DNA from: a virus | Virus genome (UHGV): UHGV-1374307 | Reading direction: 5' to 3' (one strand) | DNA length: 8,788 nt | Part shown: piece by piece, positions 7,009 to 7,065 of the stretch | Position numbering within the stretch: position 1 is the stretch's first letter | How the letters are laid out: each line of letters begins with the position of its first letter | Notes under the pieces: generated by a model | Databases searched by the model: none | The model's input: the letters and a program-made list of their open reading frames with translations, nothing else | Told to the model about the DNA's origin: nothing | Translations under genes and position numbers: made by a program

Positions 7009-7065
7009 GTACCACGAATGGTACAAACGTGCAGTATTACCAACACTGCACGTTCTTTATTGTGC
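7009..7065 (+). terminator. Two tandem hairpins plus T-rich tail after CDS 6826-7008
   Basis: GTACCA-CGAA-TGGTAC (7009-7024); ACGTGCAGT-ATTACCAAC-ACTGCACGT (7027-7053) followed by TCTTTATTGTG. Confidence 0.5.

Follow-up and report, generated by a model that had tools for sequence, protein, structure and literature searches.

A probable Ff-type plus-strand replication origin on the viral strand of a UPphi-type filamentous phage of Escherichia coli

Introduction

In the Ff phages (M13/f1/fd), the core of the plus-strand origin (domain A) reads GAGTCCAC-GTTCTTTAATA-GTGGACTC followed by the inverted repeat GTTCCA-AAC-TGGAAC, and on the viral strand the complementary-strand origin immediately precedes the plus origin on its 5′ side. 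The GTNNCA/TGNNAC repeat of Ff and IKe is, as reportedly established in Horiuchi's work, the β/γ repeat to which pII binds, and recognition by Ff pII reportedly begins near −4 and continues on the + side (Dotto, Horiuchi and Zinder, 1984). In pT181-family (Rep_trans) plasmids, the double-strand origin is nicked at ...CT|AATAGCCGG in the IR-II hairpin. The replication module of I2-2 was reportedly regarded by Stassen et al. in 1992 as non-homologous to that of IKe and Ff. The Ff nick is made at TT|AA (PMC11765958), and in IKe the plus-strand origin is annotated at 6554-6599 in NC_002014.

The UPphi group of filamentous phages, which includes the phage type considered here, has been described by Shapiro and Putonti (PMC7307601), a description in which replication origins are not discussed. 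No biochemical or genetic mapping of an I2-2- or UPphi-type origin was found in the accessible literature. An Ff-type plus origin is an ordinary kind of feature that is unmapped for the UPphi group in accessible annotations and papers. Here, a probable origin core is described on the viral strand of a UPphi-type phage, at a place where a sequence-only reading of the same DNA had remarked on an Ff nick-like string on the opposite strand.

Results

The window, that is, the whole stretch of DNA analyzed (8788 nt), is a circularly permuted filamentous phage genome. It is a circular UPphi-type inovirus phage or prophage with E. coli as its host, and dif-linked prophages 99% identical to it are present in 46 complete E. 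coli genomes, UM146 among them. The minus strand carries genes II, V, VII/IX, VIII, III, VI, I, and IV, and the match to IKe gIV and a homologue of the IKe/I2-2 morphogenetic (packaging) signal hairpin (GCGGGTAGGTGCGTGAGCCCTGC, 835-779) lie on the same strand. All three observations identify the minus strand as the viral (packaged) strand. Four ORFs from phrog families without annotation are located on the plus strand between 6826 and 8743.

The gene II product, pII, was matched by the Pfam families Phage_CRI (9.1e-70) and G2P_X_C (2.5e-29), and a weak match to Rep_trans (E 0.004) fell below the Pfam cutoff. The protein is of the I2-2 type, sharing 56% identity with I2-2 pII, and its similarity to IKe pII is weak, amounting to ∼23-28% identity over short segments. 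The start of gII is 383 nt 3′ of the nick predicted below and on the same strand, such that a cognate pII-family initiator adjoins the origin. The stop codon of the small antisense ORF that lies between them is 1 nt from palindrome 2. In the relatives, an antisense ORF occupies the equivalent place and encodes either a member of an unannotated family of 60-70 amino acids or an HTH_3-family protein of 130-142 amino acids. The coordinates of all features discussed are collected in Table I.

Table I. Coordinates of features in the window, with the strand on which each is read
Feature	Coordinates	Strand	Description
Gene II (pII initiator)	5604-6656	−	350 amino acids from GTG at 6656; Pfam matches
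Small antisense ORF	6826-7008	+	60 amino acids; phrog_2503; presumed regulator
Palindrome 2, GTACCA-TTCG-TGGTAC	7009-7024	−	predicted pII-binding inverted repeat
Hairpin 1	7026-7054	−	AACGTGCAGT (7054-7045), loop GTTGGTAAT (7044-7036), ACTGCACGTT (7035-7026)
Predicted pII nick, GT|AAT	7038-7039	−	between T7039 and A7038; from alignment with Ff TT|AA and duplication joints
Plus-strand motif, CACGTTCTTTATTGTG	7049-7064	+	exact 11-mer match to M13
Semi-conserved 5′ flank, GTTCAAAATTCGCAC	7062-7076	−	from alignment of relatives
Three abutting ssDNA hairpins	7525-7579	−	common to If1, phiAFP1, and other inoviruses
Second motif, CGTTTTTTATTGTG	7597-7610	+	in A/T-rich spacer from the three-hairpin element to the next plus-strand ORF; unconserved

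Comparison with relatives revealed a conserved unit on the viral strand, in which AACGTGCAGT-GT[T/A][G/T]GTAAT-ACTGCACGTT is followed after 1-2 bases by palindrome 2, in the form of either GTACCA-TTCG-TGGTAC or GTCTCA-TTCC-TGAGAC. This two-hairpin unit was found on the gII strand, upstream of gII, across pII identities of ∼30-100% in E. coli, Salmonella, Shewanella, Pseudomonas, Pseudohongiella, and metagenome relatives. It is present, for example, in the Salmonella loci L054 and L063 (pII 74 and 70% identical to that of the window), the I2-2-like contig L057 (55%), Shewanella L059 (50%), two further contigs, L060 and L061 (50 and 49%), Pseudohongiella L058 (49%), and Pseudomonas L062 (45%). 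Most relatives have 345-400 nt between the unit and gII, and those with a longer intervening segment have ∼555-720 nt, as with the HTH_3 regulators of 130-142 amino acids. A Rheinheimera locus (44% pII identity) also has two hairpins ∼400 nt upstream of gII, but their register differs and the locus was not used. In scans of sequence collections with an 18-mer, chance alone would give ∼100 matches for the metagenomes and ∼7 for the viruses, and sites having neither the left arm nor palindrome 2 (L097, L079/L088, and many from metagenomes) were taken as noise.

The semi-conserved flank is kept in UPphi relatives even where the cargo beyond it differs and is absent from the I2-2 group. In relatives with other cargo, homology to the window resumes at ∼7068-7081, just 5′ of the two-hairpin unit. 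On the other side, palindrome 2 gives way to the antisense ORF, where no clear third repeat was apparent by eye.

Both hairpins fold as ssDNA, with z values similar to those of the M13 and IKe origins: −4.55 (∼−4.6) at hairpin 1, against −4.7 and −5.7 for M13 and IKe, respectively. Among 21 distinct relatives, 98.1% of the cells in the hairpin 1 alignment were paired and five of the ten pairs showed compensatory change, a level that was reached in 0 of 500 shuffles, with slid controls being 17-56% paired. The stem of L062 has been rewritten with full compensation (GTCGGGTA/TACCCGAC), and in L054 and others a C-G pair of the stem is replaced by A-T. The 3′ part of the loop, G-T-(A/G)-A-T, and the AC that follows are near-invariant, in contrast to the 5′ part, which varies. 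A comparison of M13 with IKe likewise shows a differing 5′ part and a common 3′ part. A scan of the whole window against Rfam (E ≤ 1) returned no match.

Alignment of the viral strands of M13, IKe, I2-2, and the window gave 24 invariant columns, GT.CA ... T.TAATA.TG.AC..TTGT..CA...TG..AC, with the loop region of hairpin 1 aligned to TTTAATAGTGGAC of M13 and IKe. With the nick positioned as in Ff (T|AAT), the second inverted repeat begins at +15 in M13, IKe, and the window. Scored without gaps, the Ff core TAATAGTGGACTCTTGTTCCA matched 16 of 21 positions at 7039-7019, the next best site matching 13, and a maximum of at least 16/21 was reached in 10 of 300 shuffles (p ∼0.03), which is marginal. 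The shorter query TAATAGTGGAC gave three matches at ≤2 mismatches against 2.2 expected, which is not significant. Given that likeness to the Ff sequence is by itself marginal, the weight of the case for an origin is carried by conservation, covariation, and spacing, together with the association with a pII residue and the duplication junctions described below.

The same features set the locus beside the Ff origin. Both are on the viral strand 5′ of gene II, have T|AATA.TG.AC on the 3′ side of the loop and a GTNNCA/TGNNAC repeat at +15, and are served by an initiator of the Phage_CRI/G2P_X_C type, in which an N preceding (S/T)F(W/Y)R goes with a ..CCA half-site. They differ in five of the 21 core positions, in the stem (GTGCAGT in place of Ff GAGTCCAC), and in pII, which is very divergent. 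An antisense ORF takes the place of the A+T-rich enhancer between the Ff core and gene II, the core-gII distance is 383 nt rather than ∼225, and no counterpart of the Ff δ repeat or of that enhancer could be picked out by eye. With IKe, the locus shares architecture, spacing, and the pattern of a varying 5′ loop with TTTAATA and the right arm fixed; the IKe palindrome is GTTGCA-TTT-TGCAAC, the equivalent pII residue is T, and pII is ∼25% identical. The pT181-family origins resemble it in having the nick in a hairpin loop at T|AAT(A) and an initiator superfamily that is distantly related (the sub-cutoff Rep_trans match), but they belong to another type of replicon and, by the Pfam cutoff, another initiator family.

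The direct homologue in I2-2 is intergenic, at ∼2668-2712, and reads GAACGTGCAGT-GTATGTAAT-ACTGCA(A)CGTTT-GTCTCA-ATC-TGATAC. As in the window, it stands ∼400 nt upstream of pII (56% identical) with a small antisense ORF between. Unlike that of the window, its right arm has a 1-nt bulge, its palindrome is imperfect (GTCTCA/TGATAC), the pII position is A, and it has no neighboring cargo genes. In GenBank, the I2-2 entry carries no origin annotation for the element. As judged from the aligned sequences, the I2-2 replication module has the architecture of the Ff origin.

Two natural rearrangements have joints at the hairpin 1 loop. In L068, a 754-nt partial tandem duplication runs from the right half of the origin through the regulator to codon 35 of gII, where it is rejoined to the origin; the donor ...GGGAAACAGTAA|AACGG and the origin ...GTGTTGGTAA|TACTGC meet in the junction ...GGGAAACAGTAATACTGC, with GTAA as microhomology. 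In L147, a 2419-nt partial tandem duplication ends in gVIII and is joined to the origin in the same manner, the donor being ...GGCATCAAGT|GGTGTT, the origin ...GTGTTGGT|AATACTG, the junction ...GGCATCAAGTAATACTG, and the microhomology GT. Both joints were read from assemblies, one of which is metagenomic. GT|AAT, the predicted nick, is the sole break that fits both joints and the analogy with Ff. In L050 and L091/L135, the left arm has been lost exactly at GTAAT, and contig L080 starts at GTAAT and ends in dif. Duplications of this kind would be the expected product of aberrant rolling-circle termination at a pseudo-site followed by recombination into a full genome. Illegitimate recombination at the M13 nick was reportedly described by Michel and Ehrlich in 1986.

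Across phage, genome, and metagenome contigs, the second repeat has the form GTNNCA-(3-5 nt)-TGNNAC and occurs as discrete alleles, that of Ff (GTTCCA/TGGAAC) included. Two pII columns separated loci with GTACCA from those with GTCTCA, and just one, residue 285 in the motif LP(H/K)xTFYRHR, did so cleanly. This residue is N in the window, within LPHNTFYRHR. In an enlarged sample, made up of 43 distinct pairings of pII with element at 30-100% pII identity to the window (counts ignore phylogeny), it was N in 9/9 combinations with GTACCA and P or A in 28/28 with GTCTCA; single cases of GTCCCA had T or G, and a single case of GTGCCA had R. At the equivalent position, Ff, with GTTCCA, has N (MPRNSFWRY), and IKe, with GTTGCA, has T. 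The allele switches within clades that are 91-92% identical (the window versus L064 and L075 versus L061), which argues that the association, in counts that ignore phylogeny, is not a single inherited event. Lineages with N285 also occur at several levels of divergence from the window pII.

In an AlphaFold2 model of pII (mean pLDDT 82.9), residue 285 opens a helix at 284-295 (pLDDT of the block, 91) that follows a short helix at 278-281 in a helix-turn-helix-like arrangement. A search of PDB sequences with a pII profile returned just DnaA domain IV at E 0.2, and a Foldseek comparison of the model with the PDB gave nothing significant. From the residue/allele association and the model, N285 is predicted to read palindrome 2.

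The sequence-only reading had proposed that a string on the plus strand matches the start of the Ff nick region and recurs in a second, related copy. Both strings lie where it had placed them, opposite the strand of the core genes, all of which are minus. The Ff sequence that it gave was also accurate, the first 11 nt being identical to M13, which contains CACGTTCTTTAATAGTGGAC in its nick region and reads GAGTCCACGTTCTTTAATAGTGGACTC at 5766-5792. The window has a single exact copy of the 11-mer, none of 200 dinucleotide shuffles contained it, and 0.20 matches are expected at ≤1 mismatch. The view that such a match is unlikely by chance holds for a pre-specified query, but the sub-window and the strand had here been freely chosen. 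In Ff numbering, the match runs from −10 to +1. Nothing in the window matches the longer Ff core GTTCTTTAATAGTGGAC at ≤3 mismatches, and the Ff pII recognition/binding sequence AATAGTGGACTCTTGTTCC is absent 3′ of the plus-strand motif, where the strand reads ATTGTGCGAATTTTG.

Within the motif, CACGTT (7049-7054) lies opposite the base of the left arm of the origin hairpin, to which it is complementary, and CTTTATTGTG is lineage-specific flank. The 11-mer corresponds to the Ff left arm and 5′ loop and is unconserved in IKe, which reads CACTATGTTTA over these positions. A comparison of 22 distinct UPphi-type sequences and I2-2, the relatives having been gathered by pII homology, showed CTTTA replaced by CTTTT, CTAGT, TTAAA, CCAGA, CTGGA, TTTTG, or CACCC, with the adjoining hairpin unchanged. 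In the comparison with the IKe and I2-2 origins that had been suggested as a check, IKe differs over the 11 nt and I2-2 has no T-tail. The resemblance of the 16-nt plus-strand string to the 5′ half of the Ff nick hairpin is coincidental, and the string is on the wrong strand. The suspicion of a link between this place and the Ff origin was nonetheless right, albeit by way of the viral strand and in another register (7054-7009).

The second motif is identical to the first at 13 of 14 positions (CACAATAAARAACG on the minus strand). Pairs of 14-mers with 13/14 identity number 13 in the window against 7.5 in shuffles, and the second copy is accordingly not above chance. Homology with relatives stops before it, and it is a chance A/T-rich match. 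The first motif does directly follow a hairpin, sitting at the base of the 10-bp stem of hairpin 1, but the T-run of the second begins ∼20 nt past the last G+C hairpin, with a fold z value of −1.1. A reading of the two motifs as a direct repeat bounding an inserted cassette was rejected, the 13/14 identity being at chance level. The second motif has no origin function.

The second motif lies ∼17 nt 5′ of the three-hairpin element, which on the viral strand (7579-7525) comprises CCGC-cta-GCGG, GTTCGGG-gttctgtgaca-CCCGAAC, and CCGTGG-tttc-CCGCGG. This block shares 92% identity with a portion of the “major intergenic region” of If1 and 95.6% with Alteromonas phage phiAFP1, the paper on which contains nothing on origins. 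It is also present in a plasmid-borne inovirus of Klebsiella, directly after the small regulator. The Salmonella prophage L063 has the block as well, just ∼40 nt from the origin hairpin on the 5′ side and with compensation in the third stem (ACCGTA/TACGGT). This position is the one at which Ff keeps its complementary-strand origin, and that role is therefore adopted as a working guess, by which 7525-7579 would be a candidate complementary-strand origin set apart from the plus origin.

The three-hairpin element had no Rfam match in the whole-window scan (E ≤ 1). A complementary-strand origin of the G4 type was rejected, there being no similarity to the G4 oric. A reading as a plasmid ssi signal was also rejected: the matches in IncF plasmids adjoin an STM4504/CBY_0614 gene, which is UPphi cargo elsewhere, and the Klebsiella plasmid match sits within an inovirus prophage. 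The many IncF plasmid matches are a captured phage fragment and not independent evidence.

Discussion

The segment 7054-7009 of the minus strand is very probably the core of the plus-strand origin, with its predicted nick at 7039/7038, and the 16-nt string on the other strand is coincidental. Conservation, covariation, the alignment with Ff and IKe, the association between residue and half-site, and the duplication junctions are the observations that make this case; pII binding at the segment, the exact position of the nick, and its chemistry are inferred by analogy with the Ff system. An I2-2-type pII would bind GTACCA/TGGTAC in supercoiled replicative-form DNA through the helix that starts at N285 and would cut the viral strand at GT|AAT, between 7039 and 7038. 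The 3′ OH at the nick would then prime rolling-circle synthesis toward gII, and once one round was done, pII would cleave and reseal the regenerated site.

Hairpin 1 also has the appearance of an intrinsic terminator, and it is unlikely, although conceivable, that 7009-7054 is just a Rho-independent, perhaps bidirectional, terminator of the ORF at 6826-7008, with the origin elsewhere, for example at 6657-6825. The window has a G+C stem and then a T-rich tail after a short ORF: the hairpin is 1 nt past the ORF stop, the plus-strand RNA folds at −20.8 kcal/mol (z −3.9), and the stem is followed by UUCUUUAUU, in which TTCTTTATT would be the U-tract. Moreover, the element is placed just 3′ of the antisense ORF in every relative, and A- or T-runs flank the stem in several, giving the look of a bidirectional terminator. 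The U-tract is, however, unconserved (CACGTTCTAGTTTG, CACGTTCCAGATT, and, in I2-2, CACGTTCACCCCGCC), whereas stem and loop keep their sequence while the neighboring proteins fall to 45-50% identity, a degree of conservation far beyond structural need and atypical of terminators. A simple terminator scan calls neither motif site, and a terminator would leave unexplained the alignment and spacing shared with Ff and IKe, the link to residue 285, and the joints at GT|AAT. The earlier suggestion that the T-tracts may be those of terminators fits the first, which could double as a tail; the T-run of the second is ∼20 nt from the last G+C stem. In the window phage, hairpin 1 together with TTCTTTATT may have a secondary role as a terminator, stopping transcription of the small antisense ORF.

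That palindrome 2, and perhaps hairpin 1 as well, serves the antisense regulator as its operator or is bound by a host factor is improbable. A perfect inverted repeat that adjoins a regulator gene and exists as discrete alleles would suit an operator, but the same two alleles occur with unrelated regulators (the 60-70-amino acid family and the HTH_3 proteins of 130-142 amino acids), the allele follows a single residue of pII encoded ∼1.2 kb away, and Ff and IKe have GTNNCA/TGNNAC at an equal distance from the mapped nick, where it is reportedly bound by pII. Least credible of all is the proposal of an Ff-type pII nick site, whether functional or vestigial, at the plus-strand sequence CACGTTCTTT|ATTGTG, for which 7597-7610 would be the second copy. 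In its favor are the exact identity to M13 −10 to +1, absent from 200 shuffles, and a weak GCAC/GTGC mini-stem that could place the T-run in a loop. Against this, the strand is wrong for making viral ssDNA; pII is just ∼23-28% identical, in short segments, to IKe pII; CTTTA varies freely among the relatives, and IKe departs from Ff over the same 11 nt; there is no Ff match 3′ of the nick, where recognition by Ff pII reportedly lies; and the second copy is at chance level in a segment that the homology of the relatives does not reach. The complementary-strand nick site proposed by the sequence-only reading falls with these points, and its alternative, a remnant of a rearranged origin, gives way to the real homology to the Ff and IKe cores on the viral strand at 7054-7009. 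The case teaches that exact identity to a known motif over 11 nt can be coincidental, as it was here, and the true homology was weaker in sequence and on the opposite strand.

Returning to the predicted viral-strand origin, the allele and junction data can be brought together in a joint reading, put forward tentatively and with rather less confidence than the origin itself, of a near one-residue pII code for the half-site dinucleotide and of the nick GT|AAT as a natural breakpoint. The residue that opens the predicted recognition helix, just before (T/S)F(Y/W)R(H)R, may set the central dinucleotide of GTNNCA, with N corresponding to AC or TC, P or A to CT, T or G to CC, T to TG, and R to GC. 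The nick at GT|AAT may in turn yield partial duplications and put exchangeable cargo beside the origin.

Hundreds of genomes of clinical E. coli, Klebsiella, Salmonella, and Citrobacter carry a UPphi-type prophage at dif. The predicted origin (fragment 7000-7080, minus strand) would allow phagemids and helper systems to be built for the group, and the prediction helps in reading tandem and hybrid prophage arrays and in spotting defective copies without the left arm. The architecture shared by I2-2 and Ff, together with the link to residue 285, opens initiator specificity to direct experiment. If the one-residue code is true, a single substitution could switch origin specificity and hence the incompatibility or cross-talk of co-resident filamentous phages.

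Organization of the probable origin region

A candidate complementary-strand origin is the block of three abutting single-stranded DNA hairpins (see table). The block was found with 92% identity in the major intergenic region of If1 and with 95.6% identity in Alteromonas phage phiAFP1, and it is also present in a plasmid-borne inovirus of Klebsiella. In the Salmonella prophage L063, the third stem of the block is compensated, and the origin hairpin follows ∼40 nt to the 3′ side of the block. No match to the block was found in Rfam, and comparison with the G4 oric revealed no similarity.

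In the window, an insert, the phrog_4174 gene, separates the plus origin from the three-hairpin element. Different cargo occupies this position in relatives; in L063, the two elements stand side by side. IncF plasmids, more than 400 of them, carry a counterpart of window 7528-7585 with 87-90% identity (two examples are given in the table). Directly downstream of this fragment is a gene of the STM4504/CBY_0614 family, which in other E. coli prophages is cargo of UPphi-type phages. Apparently, the IncF plasmids captured a piece of phage.

Features of the window and of related loci
Feature	Location	Strand	Detail
Long hairpin	window 779-835	minus	directly 3′ of gene IV
Predicted membrane protein, phrog_4174	window 7097-7519	plus	140 aa
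Three abutting ssDNA hairpins	window 7525-7579	minus	
Two inverted dif-like sites	window 29-56; 8750-8777	minus; plus	spanning circular junction
Origin-like hairpin, first	L058		GGTGCGGT-gctagtgat-ACCGCACC
Origin-like hairpin, second	L058		AGGACAG-gggttagtaata-CTGTCCT; 67 nt upstream of gII
Partial tandem duplication	L068 (IMGVR_UViG_651053079_000001) ∼985-1800	minus	754 nt
Partial tandem duplication	L147 (OLQZ01000428.1) 1821-4260		2419 nt
IncF plasmid fragment	L003 (NZ_CP023363.1) 4001-4056		
IncF plasmid fragment	L104 (NZ_CP061188.1) 5001-5056		

Other hairpins of the window

The hairpin that follows gene IV contains GCGGGTAGGTGCGTGAGCCCTGC, a homologue of the sequences annotated in IKe and I2-2 as morphogenetic (packaging) signals. 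Between the inverted dif-like sites lies a further hairpin, GGCCGCTGCG...CGCAGCGGCC. Folding of the junction-spanning viral strand yielded a forked hairpin (-30.3 kcal/mol) in which both dif-like sites are paired together, resembling the single-stranded attP of CTXphi.

Variant and duplicated origin-like elements in relatives

Inspection of Pseudohongiella spirulinae (L058; CP013189.1, 1200-5029) revealed tandem mini-units, each consisting of an HTH regulator, the initiator pII and a 91-aa ORF, together with two origin-like hairpins per unit; this arrangement may represent a satellite-like element. At ∼594 of the 8-kb contig L091 (IMGVR_UViG_2648501784_000002), the right arm of the origin is present with GTACCA-cggg-TGGTAC and without the left arm, and no pII homologue was detectable on this contig. 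The same sequence without the left arm was observed in L135 and three other metagenome contigs.

Two relatives carry partial tandem duplications. Each starts at GT|AAT of the origin, and its far end falls on a pseudo-site within gII or gVIII. Both resemble miniphage-type products of an aberrant termination of rolling-circle synthesis that have become integrated.
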